Assembly: GCA_963997415.1 (NCBI GenBank)
Contig: CAXEMN010000001.1
Location: 24,220 to 88,219, forward strand
From: an uncultured Candidatus Poseidoniales archaeon
GTDB taxonomy: Archaea > Thermoplasmatota > Poseidoniia > Poseidoniales > Poseidoniaceae
Length of the DNA: 64,000 bases
Direction of reading: 5' to 3'
Shown: piece by piece, positions 37,319 to 43,655 of the stretch
Numbering within the stretch: position 1 is the stretch's first letter
How the letters are laid out: every line of letters begins with the position of its first letter
Notes under the pieces: generated by a model
Told to the model about the DNA's origin: nothing
Database searches by the model: none
The model's input: the letters and a program-made list of their open reading frames with translations, nothing else
Program-made: the position numbers and the translations under genes

Positions 37319-37789
37319 TCATTTTCTTCGATTCCAAGGTGGCCATGTTCGGAAGCCCTTGGATGATTCGCGATCAGCAAACACTTGAATTCGAATTGTT
37401 TCACCTTCGACAAGAATGGCATCTTCAGCAGTTAAACCTGGACAGGTGGCCTTGACTTCATTCCATGCGCGCTCGGTTGCCAAATTTTCAGACCACCATG
37501 GAAACGCTGCACATTGTTGTGGACGGACTTCGTAAATGGAGCAGCGCTTCTCACCATCAAGGAAGATACAAACATCATCGCTTGCTCTACTTTTCAGAAT
37601 ATACCGTCCATCGAGGGTTTGTCTACAATCGCGTTCCAGCCACTCTTCGACCGGTAACTCATGATGCGCTGCAATACGTTCAGCATCATTTGTTGAAAGG
37701 TAGACAATACCCCCGGGTTCATCACAACAACGGCCACACTGCGGTTGGCATGAGAAGGGCACACCTGCCATCCACCAGGCGGCCTTCAT
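37319..37789 (-). CDS. YkgJ-family (UPF0153) Cys-cluster protein
   Basis: CQPQCGRCCDEPGG...VCIFLDGEKRCSIYEVRPQQCAAFPWW is the CxxCxxCC plus distal Cys pattern. ATGA overlap with the upstream gene. Confidence 0.65.
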   Translation of the reverse strand: MKAAWWMAGVPFSCQPQCGRCCDEPGGIVYLSTNDAERIAAHHELPVEEWLERDCRQTLDGRYILKSRASDDVCIFLDGEKRCSIYEVRPQQCAAFPWWSENLATERAWNEVKATCPGLTAEDAILVEGETIRIQVFADRESSKGFRTWPPWNRRK

Positions 37790-39837
37790 TCTTCTTCACC
37801 CAACGGTGTGATCGTTGCAGGTGAGATGGTGGAGAGGGTGATTTTCCTTACCGGTTCATCTTCAAGCAAATCCATCATGTCAATATTGGCCGCATCGACA
37901 TCCCATTCACCTTCCGGGACATAACTGTCGAGAGCCTCTTGTGGGTCGGCAACAGGCTTCTTTTTGCGCCTACCAACCGTTCTTCGCTTCTTTTCCACAT
38001 CTTCTTCAAACGGTGGTAAAGGCTCTCTTTCAGGATCTATTTCGACAAGTTCTTCCTCCAATCGTCGTAAATCGTCTGCAATCTGAATCAGTTCCTCAAT
38101 TGAGGCTTCAGATGTCTGTTCTGCTAATTGAATCATTTTTTGTTCAAGTTGTCCTAGACGAACACCTTGCTCTGTGAATTCGGATTCAAAGGCACCAATT
38201 TTGGCATCAATTGATTCATCCAAGTCAGTCAATATGTCTGCAGCAGTACTGTAATCTCGTTCTTCGATCCGCCCGGTACGTGCTACGAGGTGCTCTTCCC
38301 GTTCGTGAAGCGCAAGGACCGATGGAAGGCTAGGATCAATATCCTCAAGCGCAGTACGCATGTAAGCAGTGTGACGGGATTCAGCGTTACGCGCCATGGC
38401 CTCTGTATCAAATTGTGGCGGCTCATAGTCGTCCTCACCAATGGTTGGAAGCGTAGAGTGAAGCTCAATACCGCCAATTTTGTGGTCGCTGTAAACAACG
38501 TCAGATGCTTCTGCGATCAATCGAGTTGCAATGTCAGATACTTGCTCTCGTTCAACCGCGGGCCTAGGCCGTTGTGATTTGATGAGTTCACCAGACAGCA
38601 CGGATGCTACATCGTCACCATCGAGGAGTTCTTGCCCGGATTCAATGGCCAACGCAACCATATCGAAATTCGCTTTTGTGGCCCTCCACGAGGCTTCATT
38701 GTGGAGCACGATGCTGGCTAACTGTCCATCGTCAAGCATGAGGCTTCGTTGCAAAGCTAATTTTCGTGCAAACAGGACGAGGCTTGTTGGCTTTGGTGAA
38801 AATAGGTTGACGCTTGCTGCATTTTTGATCAGGTCCCAAAGCCTTGAGGCAGGCCATCGATGTGGTTCAATCATGCTCGTGAGTACGACGTGGACACCCA
38901 TGTTCAAAGCATAATCAACCATCATGCCAAGCATGCTTGCAACCTCTGGCTGATCAGCCACCATATGGACATCATCCACGGCGAAGAGTCGTGCATGAGC
39001 CAACGCCTCTTGCCAACCTTCAGGCAATCGTTCAAGGGACACGAGATCGGCTGCACCGAGCAAGAATACGCCCCCCTCCTGCCGCCTCAATACGCCTTGT
39101 GCAAGGGCGTGGAGGAGGTGAGATCTGCCACTTTCACTGGGTCCGATGATGACAAGAGGGTTCAATGCGGACCCTGGTGAGTCGACGATGGCTTCAGCCG
39201 CTTGTGTCGCTCGTAGATTTTCTTCAGTAGCGAACCATTGCTTGAAGCTCATTCGCGTTTCAGGGCGCAATCGTGGAGGCCATGGTGCCTGAATTGGTGC
39301 GGTTATGCTATGGTGGAATGGGGACTCTGGTTCTGGTAGGGCCATGTGTTCTGGTAGGGCATGAAGGGTTCTTCCACGTTGATCATCGAGCACACTTTCC
39401 CATACAGGTCGACCATCATGTTCCATTCCGACGAAGAAATCATCATCATTTGGCGAGGCATACCCCTTCTCAATTGAATCACCAGTTCGCTCCCGCAGAC
39501 TTCGTAATCGGTTTGCTACAATCGAAGCCAATGATTCATCATCGGTGGCAAGGTTGAGCGCAGGTTGATGTTTCCTGCTCTCCTTTCCAAGCACTGCATC
39601 TGCGACGAGGTCATAGGTTGGCCGTTGAACAACTCCGACCCTTTGCAGCAATGCACCTTGCTGTGGAACCGGTACTTCGCGCTTGCCTAACAATTGGTTC
39701 AACCTCGATTTTGGAGGTTGTGTTTTCTTGTCGCTTCGAGGTTCCTCTTCTGGGAAGGAGGTGGTTGCACCGGTGTCGCTTAGCCGTTGTTTGGCACGTG
39801 CAATTGCCAAATCCAAATGTTCCTTTCGAGAACTCAT
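37786..39837 (-). CDS. DnaA/Hda-like AAA+ domain protein with a degenerate Walker A, disordered N-terminus and coiled-coil/basic C-terminus
   Basis: Residues ~196-415 run MSFKQWFATEENLRATQAAEAIVDSPGSALNPLVIIGPSESGRSHLLHA...LFAVDDVHMV...VVLTS...SRLW...VNLFSPKP...ARKLALQRSLMLDDGQLASIV. This is collinear with DnaA domain III ([19 protein letters not shown]...LLIDDIQF...IILTSD...SRF...). No domain IV was seen. Confidence 0.6.
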   Translation of the reverse strand: MSSRKEHLDLAIARAKQRLSDTGATTSFPEEEPRSDKKTQPPKSRLNQLLGKREVPVPQQGALLQRVGVVQRPTYDLVADAVLGKESRKHQPALNLATDDESLASIVANRLRSLRERTGDSIEKGYASPNDDDFFVGMEHDGRPVWESVLDDQRGRTLHALPEHMALPEPESPFHHSITAPIQAPWPPRLRPETRMSFKQWFATEENLRATQAAEAIVDSPGSALNPLVIIGPSESGRSHLLHALAQGVLRRQEGGVFLLGAADLVSLERLPEGWQEALAHARLFAVDDVHMVADQPEVASMLGMMVDYALNMGVHVVLTSMIEPHRWPASRLWDLIKNAASVNLFSPKPTSLVLFARKLALQRSLMLDDGQLASIVLHNEASWRATKANFDMVALAIESGQELLDGDDVASVLSGELIKSQRPRPAVEREQVSDIATRLIAEASDVVYSDHKIGGIELHSTLPTIGEDDYEPPQFDTEAMARNAESRHTAYMRTALEDIDPSLPSVLALHEREEHLVARTGRIEERDYSTAADILTDLDESIDAKIGAFESEFTEQGVRLGQLEQKMIQLAEQTSEASIEELIQIADDLRRLEEELVEIDPEREPLPPFEEDVEKKRRTVGRRKKKPVADPQEALDSYVPEGEWDVDAANIDMMDLLEDEPVRKITLSTISPATITPLGEEE

Positions 39838-41792
39838 TTGGTCTCCTCCTTTTCTTGCCTCAAGCGTTCAAGATCTTCACGTTCCCATACACTGAGGTGG
39901 TCTTCGATGCTCCCTGGGCTTTGGGCCATTGAAGCAATTTCTCTCGGTAAGTGCTTAGGTTGTGCTTCGGCATCGATTCCCGGACGGGCAAGCAAGGGTG
40001 AAAGTGCCTCATCGGCTGCATCGGGTTGGCGGTCATTGACTGCTGCGATTGGCCGTGGTCCCCGATTCAATGGTGGTAACTCGTAGTTACCTTTCGCCGC
40101 ATCTTGTTGAGCAGCTTGATTGAGAGTCATACGTGGTGATGCAGGGGTTGAGAAGGTTCGTTCCACTGCTCTCTCCTGGCGCAGCGTGAACGATTCGAGG
40201 GTTGACGAGATTGCTGTTGGTTTGTGAACACTGGATTGCTTTGGGAACTCAGAGGGGCGTTCTGGTGCTTCCGCAGCCGCTGCAACACGAGCCACATGAG
40301 TCGGTAGTGCGACAGTATTCGCCTGTGTTTTTCCACGCCTGCGAACCCTATGAGCAGGGCGTGGTCCCTTTTTCACTACCGCAATCGGGGCCTGGACTTG
40401 TGGTTGTTCTTTGCGACGAGCGACTGGTTCAACAGCTTGTTTGATCGGAGGAACTGGTTCGCTTTTTGGCGGGGCGACAGGCATCGGTTTTGGTGCTGCT
40501 TGCCCCGCTTCGAGTGGTGGGTCAGGCGTCACTTGCGGCAGAGGTTCAGAGGCCATACTTTCTGGTTCGGCTTCTTCAGTTTTCCAAGATTCTATTTCTT
40601 CATCGAGTGCATCGTTCGCTTGCCTTCGCTCGTCAACGCTGGTTGGTTCATGACCTCCGATGAGTGGCGTGCCCGAATCAATAATTGGGGCTGAAGATGC
40701 GGAGTGTTCTATTGCCCTTTGCAGTTGTTGTTCGATCCATTCCCTCTCTTCCTCGGTTGGTGGGGCGCACAAAGGATGGTCGAGAATGAGATCAGGTTCA
40801 GTTAGCCAATGCTCTAATTCGCTAGGCTGAATTGACATCAGGCTGCGTGTGAGTCGGTGCCTTGGCTCCAAATCAAAGGCATTCAAATCAACCGTGAACA
40901 AGGCCACGTGATCATCCATTCGAACACCATCGACGATGTCGCGAATGAAATCAATCGTAGCGCCATCTCCATTCATTCCAGCCAAATATTCTATGCCTTC
41001 AATCAACACAACGGCTCTCATATTTTCCCAAAGGAACGCATCAACCGCCCGTCGTACTGACTCAATGGTCGGTTTGAGGGCCCTTGGATGCGTGCTGTTA
41101 CTTAGCCAATGGCATGATGCAGATGGCAGATTATGTTCGACGCTTAGTGCATCAATATCATGACGTGAGATCACCAAAACAGGACGTCCATGAGTTGCAA
41201 GATGGCCCGCTAGTTGGAACATCGAAGTTGGGTCTTGAGCATCCAATACCAAGGCATCACCTGGGTGAATCATTCGTTCGAGCCCTTCGTAGCGTTGCAT
41301 GTATGCCTTGCTTTTCTGGCGAACTGCCTCTGGTGCTTCAACACTCACCTCAAGTTCGGGCAAGCGTTCTTCACGGCGCCAACTCCCTGGTCTGAGTTTG
41401 ACATTGGACCACCAACGTTCGTCGCCCCCTTGCGAGGTATCCGCCACTTCGAGGTTGAGGTGTGCGTTGGTGTGAAGGTGCCGTATCCGTTGCGCATCTG
41501 CGGCAGGAAGTTCGTGAATGGCGATCAGTGTTTCGAGGGGTATGGCATCGTCTTCGATTTCCAGCAACGCTTCGAGTCCAAATACGATTGCTTCGCCTTC
41601 ATGGATGGCAAGGCTCGGATGCCCTTCAATGAAGAGAATGTGCCCTACACGTGGCATTTTGTCCTTTGGTTTACGCTCGGTTCGAATGAAACCAGTGGTT
41701 GACAACTTGGCCATATCAGCGGAGAGAAGGCGGAGCGCATCGCGGTCACCACGGCGTACTTCCGTGACATCGCCCTGCGGTAATTCGACCAT
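39834..41792 (-). CDS. DUF4388/DUF2226-like N-terminal domain plus DUF835-like domain protein with a long Pro-rich basic disordered tail
   Basis: N-terminus: TTGFIRTE...GHILFIEGHPSLAIHEG...GLEALLEI. Residues ~176-320: PVLVISRHD...CHWLSNS...AVVLIEGIEYL...IDFIRDIV...LFTVDLNAF (DUF835 pattern from memory). ATGA overlap with the next gene. Confidence 0.55.
   Translation of the reverse strand: MVELPQGDVTEVRRGDRDALRLLSADMAKLSTTGFIRTERKPKDKMPRVGHILFIEGHPSLAIHEGEAIVFGLEALLEIEDDAIPLETLIAIHELPAADAQRIRHLHTNAHLNLEVADTSQGGDERWWSNVKLRPGSWRREERLPELEVSVEAPEAVRQKSKAYMQRYEGLERMIHPGDALVLDAQDPTSMFQLAGHLATHGRPVLVISRHDIDALSVEHNLPSASCHWLSNSTHPRALKPTIESVRRAVDAFLWENMRAVVLIEGIEYLAGMNGDGATIDFIRDIVDGVRMDDHVALFTVDLNAFDLEPRHRLTRSLMSIQPSELEHWLTEPDLILDHPLCAPPTEEEREWIEQQLQRAIEHSASSAPIIDSGTPLIGGHEPTSVDERRQANDALDEEIESWKTEEAEPESMASEPLPQVTPDPPLEAGQAAPKPMPVAPPKSEPVPPIKQAVEPVARRKEQPQVQAPIAVVKKGPRPAHRVRRRGKTQANTVALPTHVARVAAAAEAPERPSEFPKQSSVHKPTAISSTLESFTLRQERAVERTFSTPASPRMTLNQAAQQDAAKGNYELPPLNRGPRPIAAVNDRQPDAADEALSPLLARPGIDAEAQPKHLPREIASMAQSPGSIEDHLSVWEREDLERLRQEKEETK
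39843..39849 (-). promoter_or_regulatory. Shine-Dalgarno-like GGAGGAG for the DnaA-like gene, embedded in the end of the upstream CDS
   Basis: The minus strand reads gaaaaGGAGGAGaccaaATGA, with 5-nt spacing to ATG 39837. Confidence 0.5.
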
Positions 41793-42330: not shown

Positions 42331-42981
42331 ATGCAGGAGTCGACCACAACCCTTCCTGCAGGATTGCGGCGTTTCAATGAACTTGAGCTTGCGCGTTCGT
42401 TCATGATTCGCTTTCTTCTTACATCCCTGGGCATTGGCCTTGTCGCCATGCTGTTGGCTTCATTCGTGTTCAACGCCATGGATTCGTTTGTCCTCGCTGC
42501 AGTGTGCTTAATCTCTGCTCCTGCTTTGATCTATCAATTGCACTCGAGATCGAGCATGCTTCATGTGCCTCTTGCCGTCGATATGAATCACCCATTCATG
42601 GATGAGGACCCCATTGGAAGTGCAACAGTGATGATTCGATTGTCTGATGGCGGCTGGGTTGATGTTGGTGAAGGACGAGTCCGACTTGCAGAGGATGAAC
42701 TCATTGGAGGTTCCAACCTTGTCCGTGACAACGAGGATTACACGCTCATCGGTCATTTTAACGACCTTCCAATGACGCATCGGGGCGTCAAAAAGCAGGT
42801 TGTCCTGATCAATCAAGCAATTGCGCTAAGAGATGCGGTCAACGGTGCTGAAGACACCATCGAAGATGCTCGAGAACGTGAAGCCAATGAGACTGGCCTG
42901 CTTGACAGATCGTGGTTTGAAGATCAGAAGGAAATTGAAATTGAACCCGATGGTCTGATGAGTAAACTTCGTGGTGAATAA
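42331..42981 (+). CDS. Hypothetical membrane protein (2 TM helices plus a soluble acidic C-terminal domain)
   Basis: Hydrophobic segments at residues ~25-70. No recognisable family. Confidence 0.4.
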   Translation: MQESTTTLPAGLRRFNELELARSFMIRFLLTSLGIGLVAMLLASFVFNAMDSFVLAAVCLISAPALIYQLHSRSSMLHVPLAVDMNHPFMDEDPIGSATVMIRLSDGGWVDVGEGRVRLAEDELIGGSNLVRDNEDYTLIGHFNDLPMTHRGVKKQVVLINQAIALRDAVNGAEDTIEDAREREANETGLLDRSWFEDQKEIEIEPDGLMSKLRGE

Positions 42982-43022: not shown

Positions 43023-43655
43023 TTGCTCAGACCAACAGATGTGACGACACCTACGCGATGGGGTCAAAAGCTCGAGCATTTGAGCCCGCAAGAGCAAGAT
43101 ACCCTGCTTGGGACTTCCCTCTCTCGTAGATTCACTATGCTACCATTGTGGCTTTCGCATCCAGCGAACATTGGTGCCTTTTACGGGCTGCTTGTCTCAA
43201 TTGCCCTCCTTCTTCCCTACAGATTTGCTGGTGATGATACAGATGCGTGGCTTGCAAATTGGGTGTTTCACACATCGATTTTGATGGTTGCATGTCTTCT
43301 TTTGGGTTTTTCATCCCTTCTTCTCATACGCTGGTCAAAGCGATTCCCAATGACGCCTCCAAGGCTTTTGCTCTACCCAATGCCGTTTGTCGGCATGGCT
43401 CTGTTAACCATCTCAAGGACTGATTTGGTCAATCTACCAATGTGGGTTGTATGGCTTCTCTTGTTGTTGCCCGGCCCAATGTACGTTCACCTTTCATGGG
43501 CTCCTCGATGGCGATTGTTGTGCATGCTTGAAGATGGACGAGATCCGTTCATTGGTATTGAATCAAAGCACTCCGAACCAAATGAAGATGCGGCAACCCT
43601 TGCCGGTGACGATGATGAATTACGATCTGTCGTCGAAGAGTATGCTGAGGAGTGA
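43023..43655 (+). CDS. Hypothetical integral membrane protein
   Basis: Four to five hydrophobic segments and an acidic C-terminus. The ORF begins with TTG; the first ATG is at 43137. Confidence 0.35.
   Translation: MLRPTDVTTPTRWGQKLEHLSPQEQDTLLGTSLSRRFTMLPLWLSHPANIGAFYGLLVSIALLLPYRFAGDDTDAWLANWVFHTSILMVACLLLGFSSLLLIRWSKRFPMTPPRLLLYPMPFVGMALLTISRTDLVNLPMWVVWLLLLLPGPMYVHLSWAPRWRLLCMLEDGRDPFIGIESKHSEPNEDAATLAGDDDELRSVVEEYAEE

Follow-up and report, generated by a model that had tools for sequence, protein, structure and literature searches.

A conserved DnaA-like AAA+ protein with a labile P-loop lysine in Poseidoniales archaea

A DnaA-type AAA+ module in an archaeal protein

A 64,000-nucleotide stretch of DNA from an uncultured Candidatus Poseidoniales archaeon (GenBank assembly GCA_963997415.1, contig CAXEMN010000001.1, positions 24,220 to 88,219; in the following, the window) encodes a 683-amino acid (aa) protein whose AAA+ core, as judged from profile, profile-profile and fold comparisons, is derived from domain III of bacterial DnaA. 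AAA+ modules of the DnaA type count as a hallmark of bacteria, whereas the archaeal initiator of replication is Orc1/Cdc6. The family to which this DnaA-like protein belongs is, as far as visible, specific to the Poseidoniales (Marine Group II), which are among the most abundant archaeal orders of the surface ocean, and a conserved, strongly constrained copy of this DnaA-derived gene is present in every Poseidoniales locus examined. The reading that we favour, and which we consider fairly probable from the sequence data, is that of a horizontally acquired and repurposed module with low or no nucleotide turnover, which would serve as a nucleotide switch or as an assembly scaffold together with the DUF835 protein encoded directly upstream.

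The segment at 38593-39252 (minus strand), which an earlier note made from the nucleotide sequence alone had aligned with domain III of Escherichia coli DnaA, comprises residues 194-415 of the 683-aa open reading frame (ORF); its translation reproduces the peptide quoted there (MSFKQWFATEENLRATQAAEAIVDSPGSALNPLVIIGPSESGRSHLLHALAQGVL...), and the codons at 39121-39144 on the same strand read GPSESGRS, as had been stated. The Pfam model Bac_DnaA (PF00308) matches residues 194-326 with an E-value of 1.3e-8 and 35.6 bits, well above its gathering cut-off of 23; AAA_16 and AAA_22, two generic models, reach only E ~0.1. Bac_DnaA is also the best match for 19 out of 19 diverse family members. The two best NCBIfam models are those for DnaA (TIGR00362, 44.4 bits) and Hda (TIGR03420, 40.9 bits); because both scores fall far below the equivalog cut-offs (343.9 bits for DnaA and 194.8 for Hda), the protein is neither DnaA nor Hda proper. 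A profile built from 19 diverse AAA+ segments of the family and searched against PDB sequences retrieved DnaA of Bacillus subtilis (E 1e-23), Thermotoga (2.7e-19) and Aquifex (2.1e-16) and, more weakly, Hda (4e-7) and DnaC (4e-5), with no Orc1/Cdc6 chain among the 60 listed of the 70 matches at E<=10.

When full-length alignments of the family and of DnaA were compared with hhalign, they matched with a probability of 99.7% (E 2.2e-26) over 229 columns, residues 189-418 pairing with E. coli DnaA 129-367 and the remainder of both proteins being unaligned. The protein thus contains both base and lid of domain III but lacks domains I, II and IV. Conversely, a hidden Markov model (HMM) of the AAA+ module built from 136 family sequences scores E. 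coli DnaA with 104.8 bits, Hda with 29.4 and DnaC with 26.5. The AlphaFold model of the window protein is confident over residues ~190-420 (predicted local distance difference test scores, pLDDT, of 85-93), and with this predicted structure as query DnaA and Hda account for the best 16 Foldseek matches in the PDB, with RuvB and RFC ranking next; the top match is domain III of B. subtilis DnaA (8bv3; template modelling score 0.84, root-mean-square deviation 2.4 Å), and no Orc/Cdc6 structure appears among the top 50.

By Pfam, the PDB profile search, hhalign and the family HMM alike, the proposed correspondence with DnaA domain III is thus far beyond chance, and it is significant in profile-profile comparison. 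The module is nearest to DnaA, then Hda, then DnaC, and an origin from Orc1/Cdc6 or from a generic AAA+ protein is rejected on the profile, profile-profile and fold searches, with no Orc1/Cdc6 chain among the PDB matches listed or the top 50 Foldseek matches. Hda was also considered as the closest relative, as it adjoins the family on a very long branch in a neighbour-joining (NJ) tree rooted on bacterial DnaA; the profile scores strongly favour DnaA, and we treat the position of Hda in the tree as long-branch attraction.

With bacterial DnaA (PF00308; structures 8bv3/8btg, 2z4r and 1l8q/2hcb) the module has in common the AAA+ base and lid fold, the NPL motif before beta1, the sequence G-x4-G-x-[ST]-H-L-L-H-A, the Walker B aspartate pair, the box VII arginine in the R281 column, the sensor-2 arginine and a two-helix element between beta2 and beta3. 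DnaA differs in that it has domain I, a linker and the helix-turn-helix (HTH) domain IV, to which the archaeal protein shows no homology; the Walker A lysine, moreover, is not conserved in the archaeal family. The archaeal protein in turn adds ~190 aa of N-terminal and ~260 aa of C-terminal sequence that are new relative to DnaA. The DnaC/IstB helicase loaders belong to the same initiator/loader clade and yield weak matches (DnaC, E 4e-5; IstB, E 0.004), but their scores lie far under those of DnaA, the alignment is confined to the N-terminal half, and nothing connects the archaeal gene with a mobile element. Orc1/Cdc6 is likewise an AAA+ protein of the initiator clade; the archaeal DnaA-like protein is without a winged-helix domain.

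Lability of the Walker A lysine under strong purifying selection

Among the 136 full-length members, the Walker A lysine column holds arginine in 79, lysine in 38, cysteine in 15, threonine in two, and methionine and glycine in one each, and Fitch parsimony requires at least 12 changes at this position. In the NJ tree all bacterial outgroups carry lysine and nearly all deep branches, which are of the MGIIb type, read GK[ST]; arginine arose several times, among others in a large clade that holds the window protein, and a few sequences within this clade carry lysine again. The replacement of GKT by GRS emphasized in the earlier note is therefore correct for the window protein but is not a trait of the family: it is the state of a lineage, the 38 lysine-bearing members and nearly all deep branches having kept the original residue. 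The clade of the genus Poseidonia goes further, with cysteine, glycine or threonine in the lysine column and without the first P-loop glycine and the sensor-1 Thr/Ser, while the Walker B aspartates, R332 and R385 are kept. In some deep branches the lysine is kept and R332 or R385 is absent.

The ratio of nonsynonymous to synonymous substitutions (dN/dS) of the gene is ~0.07 in comparison with the copies at loci L009 and L010 (dS 0.4-0.6), and the AAA+ part is the most constrained, with a dN/dS of 0.02-0.05. The gene is under strong purifying selection. That such constraint persists despite the lability of the lysine implies that the fold and many surface and pocket residues matter, and that classical hydrolysis evidently does not in most lineages. 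Repeated flips of the lysine without loss of the protein represent a natural experiment on the transition from an ATPase to a non-catalytic switch, in parallel to Hda.

Residues kept and lost relative to DnaA

Functional residues of E. coli DnaA, as compiled from PMC5742627, were mapped onto the 136 members. The second glycine of Walker A is invariant and the first is present in 122 members; the threonine column contains serine in 122 and threonine in 14. Box VII arginine R332 is found in 123 of 136 sequences and the sensor-2 arginine R385 in 119. R332 belongs to the family motif P[AS]SRLW[DE], whose tryptophan (W334) is shared by 99 members, and a second basic residue, R/K338, occurs in 118, two positions past the column of DnaA R285. 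The earlier note had equated SRLW with the arginine finger of DnaA (R285, in SRF). This equation is not reproduced: MAFFT, HMMER and hhalign all put R332 on R281 (in DRL), and the R285 column itself is occupied by leucine, valine or isoleucine in the family.

Several residues on which DnaA depends have been replaced. The column of sensor-1 D269, a residue for tight nucleotide binding, is variable, V211 of the H-motif is lost in a six-residue deletion between beta2 and beta3, the B-motif R245 column is mostly acidic (E/D/V), and R227 (AID-1) and L290 (AID-2), which in DnaA make oligomer-specific contacts, have become V/A and A/T, respectively. The region between beta2 and beta3, which corresponds to that of the initiator-specific motif, is 6 aa shorter than in E. 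coli DnaA and carries a family-specific conserved motif, LPxGWQ. Neither domain I nor domain IV could be detected: residues 1-189 have no Pfam match (DnaA_N included) at E<=10 and no hhalign alignment to DnaA, and for the DnaA-box-binding HTH domain there is no Bac_DnaA_C match and hhalign stops at DnaA residue 367, which bears out the earlier statement that domain IV is absent. Judged by this mapping, the determinants of origin melting and of the exceptional nucleotide affinity of DnaA are gone, and the general residues of an AAA+ pocket are kept.

Distribution and origin of the family

The archaeal host assumed in the earlier note agrees with the names of the homologues, which are Poseidonia, Poseidoniaceae or Thalassarchaeaceae wherever they are given. 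A word-index search yielded 111 full-length relatives, all from marine samples and with names such as 'DnaA/Hda family protein [Poseidonia sp.]', and a HMMER search 67 cluster representatives at E<=1e-30, all of the same family; one divergent member (P0155) is labelled Thalassarchaeaceae (MGIIb). In a scan of one genome per GTDB species with a single family-specific peptide pattern, which would miss divergent DnaA-like genes of other archaea, 80 loci were found, with labels of Poseidoniales, Poseidoniaceae, Poseidonia or unresolved archaea and a single 'Phycisphaerae'. This exception (L074, NZFX01000059.1; protein P0105) is a 10.8-kb contig of 'Phycisphaerae bacterium MED703' that carries the DnaA-like gene together with its DUF835 partner, and probably represents archaeal DNA binned by mistake into a bacterial metagenome-assembled genome (MAG). 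The original Marine Group II genome (CM001443.1) has a copy with 75% identity, and full-length orthologues with many invariant residues extend across the order down to ~25-35% identity. On the favoured reading, the gene has been inherited vertically since before the split of Poseidoniaceae and Thalassarchaeaceae. The window itself encodes archaeal-type genes, for example a 768-aa TGT with C2 and PUA domains.

Orc1/Cdc6 is the expected replication initiator in an archaeal host. Horizontal acquisition followed by repurposing, as suggested earlier, fits the data in that the family is seen only in Poseidoniales, as far as visible, that Marine Group II also has Orc1/Cdc6, and that the protein has lost the residues for origin melting along with DnaA domains I and IV; the module would have been acquired from bacteria in the Poseidoniales stem. 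In bacteria, dnaA and gyrB are neighbours close to the origin. Cdc6/Orc1 proteins of Marine Group II have been placed in the trees of Raymann et al. 2014 (PMC3914693), and the gyrase of this group is an independent acquisition from bacteria (PMC3914693). We searched for a donor lineage and could name none, the best bacterial matches being DnaA proteins from metagenomes, one DnaA of Bacillota and tandem-domain proteins of Gemmatimonadales. These tandem proteins (P0170, P0182, P0183, P0192 and P0230, from bacterial metagenomes, some of them Gemmatimonadales) have ~650 aa with two consecutive Bac_DnaA AAA+ modules and are the next-best matches after the archaeal family; one protein with tandem modules has 1990 aa and combines an MshEN domain with two DnaA modules.

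DnaA homology as such is already on record, because annotation pipelines tag these ORFs, as 'DnaA/Hda family protein' in automated annotation and as 'chromosomal replication initiation ATPase DnaA' at JGI. The latter label is misleading, and genome surveys could infer from it a bacterial-type initiation. In the literature searched we found no paper on a DnaA-like protein in Marine Group II or other archaea; 'DnaA' in one Poseidoniales paper turned out to be part of a software name, Dnaapler. The architecture of the protein, its conservation throughout the order, the lability of the P-loop, the convergence with Hda and the obligate partnership with an inactivated KaiC-like protein appear to be undescribed.

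Architecture of the protein

Features of the protein and of the adjoining genes are listed in Table 1. A GGAGG motif lies ahead of the start ATG, which shares bases with the stop codon TGA of the gene upstream (ATGA), and this start is sound because homologues are conserved from residue 1 onwards. The N-terminal region contains invariant short motifs in the family alignment (SKLNxLLGK, RPTFDLVAD, DGRPVW and WP), is mostly of low confidence in the AlphaFold model, and appears from these comparisons to be unrelated to DnaA domains I and II. The position of domain IV is taken by a helical region that ends in a hairpin rich in acidic residues (28% Asp+Glu), followed by a disordered tail. For the N- and C-terminal regions no homologue was found in Pfam at E<=10 or by PDB profile search; matches of these regions to influenza HA2 and DUF5089 were rejected as coiled-coil noise. 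The extreme C-terminus reads GEEE in 83 of the 136 members, GEEK in 10 and IGEE in nine. The conservation of this acidic tail suggests a docking motif, and we know of no reader of a GEEE-type acidic tail.

Two members depart from this layout. One protein of 792 aa (P0014) has an internal partial duplication, in which family HMM positions 9-323 are followed by 209-652; this is probably an assembly artefact and not a true tandem AAA+ protein. At the closest relative among the genomes (L009, 4001-5917; 94% identity), the ORF from the start of the match stops after 638 codons instead of 683, which may be due to a frameshift or stop in the MAG assembly.

Table 1. Features of the DnaA-like protein and adjoining genes in window coordinates
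Feature	Coordinates	Strand	Basis or remark
Whole gene, 683-aa DnaA-derived protein (by sequence and fold comparison)	37786..39837	-	ORF list; full-length homologues; start context
N-terminal region, aa 1-189	39271..39837	-	family-specific; alignment, low pLDDT
DnaA-type AAA+ module, aa 190-420, domain IIIa base and IIIb lid	38578..39270	-	profile, profile-profile, fold
Walker A / P-loop, G232-P-S-E-S-G-R238-S239	39121..39144	-	Arg for Lys and Ser for Thr
Two short helices between beta2 and beta3, aa 262-281, initiator-specific-motif region	38995..39054	-	secondary structure, residue mapping
Walker B, D288-D289	38971..38976	-	D in 132/136 and 133/136 members
Box VII region, S331-R332-L-W-D-L-I-K338	38824..38847	-	MAFFT, HMMER and hhalign alignments
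W384-R385; R385 = sensor-2 Arg (E. coli DnaA R334)	38683..38688	-	R in 119/136 members
C-terminal helical region, aa 433-600, in place of DnaA domain IV	38038..38541	-	model helices
Acidic helical hairpin, aa 526-600	38038-38262	-	helices 526-577 and 580-600, pLDDT 80-88
Lys/Arg patch KKRRTVGRRKKK, aa 616-627, in disordered tail	37957..37992	-	sequence
Conserved C-terminal tail GEEE, aa 680-683	37789..37800	-	136-member count
Upstream partner, 652-aa DUF835 protein	39834..41792	-	Pfam DUF835, E 2.4e-14
DUF835 domain of partner, aa ~170-335	40788-41285	-	confident model
Downstream small CxxCxxCC protein (PF03692, putative Zn/Fe-chelating)	37319..37789	-	start overlaps stop of DnaA-like gene

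A constant DUF835 partner

The gene directly upstream encodes a DUF835 protein, and such a partner is present at 80 of 80 loci with upstream sequence (83 loci carry the DnaA-like gene), nearly always abutting it and also in the most divergent lineages (L089, L090 and L091). Stop and start codons of the two genes overlap as NTGA at 55 out of 56 loci (ATGA at 40, GTGA at 14). A fusion of the two proteins was not found, the partner HMM matching none of ~330 DnaA-like and related proteins, and the longer family members merely have longer disordered tails. The constant pairing defines a two-protein module that, despite the lack of cultured hosts, is approachable by recombinant expression.

DUF835 has been described as an inactivated KaiC ('iKaiC') by Galperin et al. 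2018, who found it fused to receiver (REC) and PAS domains in other archaea (PMC5847659). In the partner, the domain is instead flanked by an unassigned N-terminal domain and a long disordered tail, and the protein with which it occurs is DnaA-derived. Its model matches FlaH/ArlH, RecA, KaiC and RAD51 in Foldseek searches, and it lacks a Walker A motif, as the P-loop position reads DAQDPTS. The N-terminal domain of the partner is conserved, consists of a helix, three strands and a helix with the motifs RRGG, TGYIRIER and WWS, and has no homologue detectable by Pfam at E<=10 or by PDB profile search. The tail of ~300 aa is mostly below a pLDDT of 50 and contains a basic motif, GPRxAQRVxRRKK. 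Similar Lys/Arg-rich patches occur in the disordered tails of both proteins, KKRRTVGRRKKK in the DnaA-like protein and KKGPRPAHRVRRRGK in the partner (aa ~470-485); in a clade of 583-aa DnaA-like proteins the partner keeps its patch, and the DnaA-like protein does not have one.

Possible functions

We infer that the DnaA-like protein is not a replication initiator. A switch or scaffold is more likely than an initiator, given the loss of the DNA-binding parts, the unstable catalytic lysine and the constant neighbourhood of an inactivated KaiC-like protein. In the lineage of the window, the Hda-type P-loop would probably still bind nucleotide, more likely a diphosphate, with little or no turnover, and the module could accordingly switch between conformations or provide a platform for assembly. 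The acidic helical hairpin, a predicted coiled coil, probably dimerizes, and the disordered arms at both ends would probably recruit partners through their conserved short motifs, the DUF835 protein first.

Several points weigh against this interpretation. A full canonical set of motifs (GK[ST], DD, TS and both arginines) is found in the 583-aa clade and in P0117, P0118, P0129 and P0148; these lineages could thus contain real ATPases, so that a catalytic role is possible for the family. The persistence of the Walker B aspartates, R332 and R385 despite a wrecked P-loop is not accounted for by simple loss of function; as a speculative possibility, arginine and aspartate might pair directly across subunits and lock an assembly without nucleotide. 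Nucleotide binding, oligomerization and contact with the DUF835 protein are all predictions, and the NJ tree, computed from distances over the AAA+ columns, has no support values. Adjacency alone is also weak evidence for a functional link, because many housekeeping genes are syntenic across the order; coupling is argued mainly from the overlap of stop and start codons.

A rather unlikely alternative is that the protein acts in trans like Hda, without hydrolysis, with its box VII arginine reaching into the ATP site of a second AAA+ protein of the initiator clade; this could be Orc1/Cdc6, which Marine Group II offers as a possible target, or a paralogue or partner of the lysine type. The target would thereby be inactivated or activated, and the KaiC-like protein might control this. 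E. coli Hda (RefSeq) reads ...AREGAGRSHLLHAA..., so that its GRSHLLHA is identical to residues 237-244 of the window protein, and like the archaeal protein it combines a DnaA-clade AAA+ module and an 'ASRL(D)W'-like box VII motif (ASR153LDW156, resembling P[AS]SRLW in the family) with the absence of domain IV. Hda binds ADP specifically, as seen in its crystal structure, and acts on DnaA-ATP via its box VII arginine and not by hydrolysing ATP itself (PMC5397184; PMC5742627); Arg153 in ASRLDW is essential (PMC5397184). Moreover, the NCBIfam model of Hda scores close to that of DnaA, and R332 and W334 are widespread in the family. However, the archaeal family is much less similar to Hda than to DnaA in both the family HMM and the PDB profile search, R332 occupies the position of DnaA R281 in all alignments and not that of the finger, several deep lineages lack R332, and the conserved neighbourhood is without a replication gene. 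Hda is also a much smaller protein (~233-248 aa as against 683 aa) with an N-terminal beta-clamp motif; the pattern QL[SDPE]L[FPLI] occurs in only two of 136 members, at scattered positions, and no clamp-binding (QL[SD]LF) or PIP/PCNA motif is conserved among them. Because arginine arose within the archaeal family and the family is closer to DnaA, the identity of the GRSHLLHA octapeptide is probably convergent. It nevertheless bears on the favoured switch or scaffold: since Hda with the identical octapeptide binds ADP, a GRS P-loop is compatible with nucleotide binding, and by this analogy altered handling of the nucleotide, as the earlier note had considered, would be more likely in the window lineage than a loss of binding.

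It is unlikely that the protein is an active ATPase or DNA remodeller, in which the arginine P-loop would still hydrolyse and the Lys/Arg patch would bind DNA non-specifically, with a role in chromosome organization, segregation or an alternative step of initiation. The conserved Walker B aspartates, sensor-2 and box VII arginines, the strong constraint on the AAA+ module, the basic patch, the long coiled coil and the clades with a fully canonical motif set are consistent with such an activity. On the other hand, the protein is still conserved where the lysine has changed to cysteine, glycine, threonine or methionine and where the first P-loop glycine and sensor-1 residues are lost, the single-stranded DNA-binding H and B motifs and domain IV are absent, and the basic patch is missing in the 583-aa clade.

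We also give only a small chance to the idea that a DnaA/Hda-type module and an inactivated KaiC-like protein together form a new archaeal control device, either an analogue of the regulatory inactivation of DnaA (RIDA) that acts on Orc1/Cdc6-ATP, or a sensor of nucleotide state through which an upstream signal would reach replication or the cell cycle. If true, it would be the first case in which initiator control of the bacterial type operates on replication machinery of the eukaryote-like kind.

It is very improbable that the gene belongs to a mobile element or to a defence system against viruses, or that the module stems from a virus. AAA+ proteins of the DnaA/DnaC/IstB type are common in mobile elements, the weak IstB match (E 0.004) points in this direction, and there is one marginal PADLOC match (mad8, E 1e-4), which is confined to the P-loop, no stretch passing alone; the gene, however, occupies a fixed chromosomal position between housekeeping genes in every genome examined, has the same base composition as its surroundings, no relative in IMG/VR contigs and no PHROG match. 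Nothing in these data points to a virus, a plasmid or a defence system, and such an origin is effectively refuted. That it is a decaying, functionless relic of a transferred dnaA, as the loss of the catalytic lysine and of the DnaA-specific domains might suggest, has next to no probability and is refuted by the conservation data, namely the low dN/dS of gene and AAA+ module and the full-length orthologues with many invariant residues throughout the order.

Neighbouring genes

No replication gene was found in the conserved neighbourhood of the loci examined. The small CxxCxxCC gene downstream adjoins the DnaA-like gene at every locus examined; since its orientation is inverted in an MGIIb locus (L089), it is less tightly coupled to the DnaA-like gene than the DUF835 partner is. 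Beyond it follow housekeeping genes, citrate synthase among them. On the other side, two ORFs of ~200 aa (42331-42981 and 43023-43655, both on the plus strand) are divergent from the operon; they have no match in Pfam (E<=10), the PDB profile search or PADLOC, and all related loci examined (L001-L005 and L089-L091) have this pair beside the DUF835 gene.

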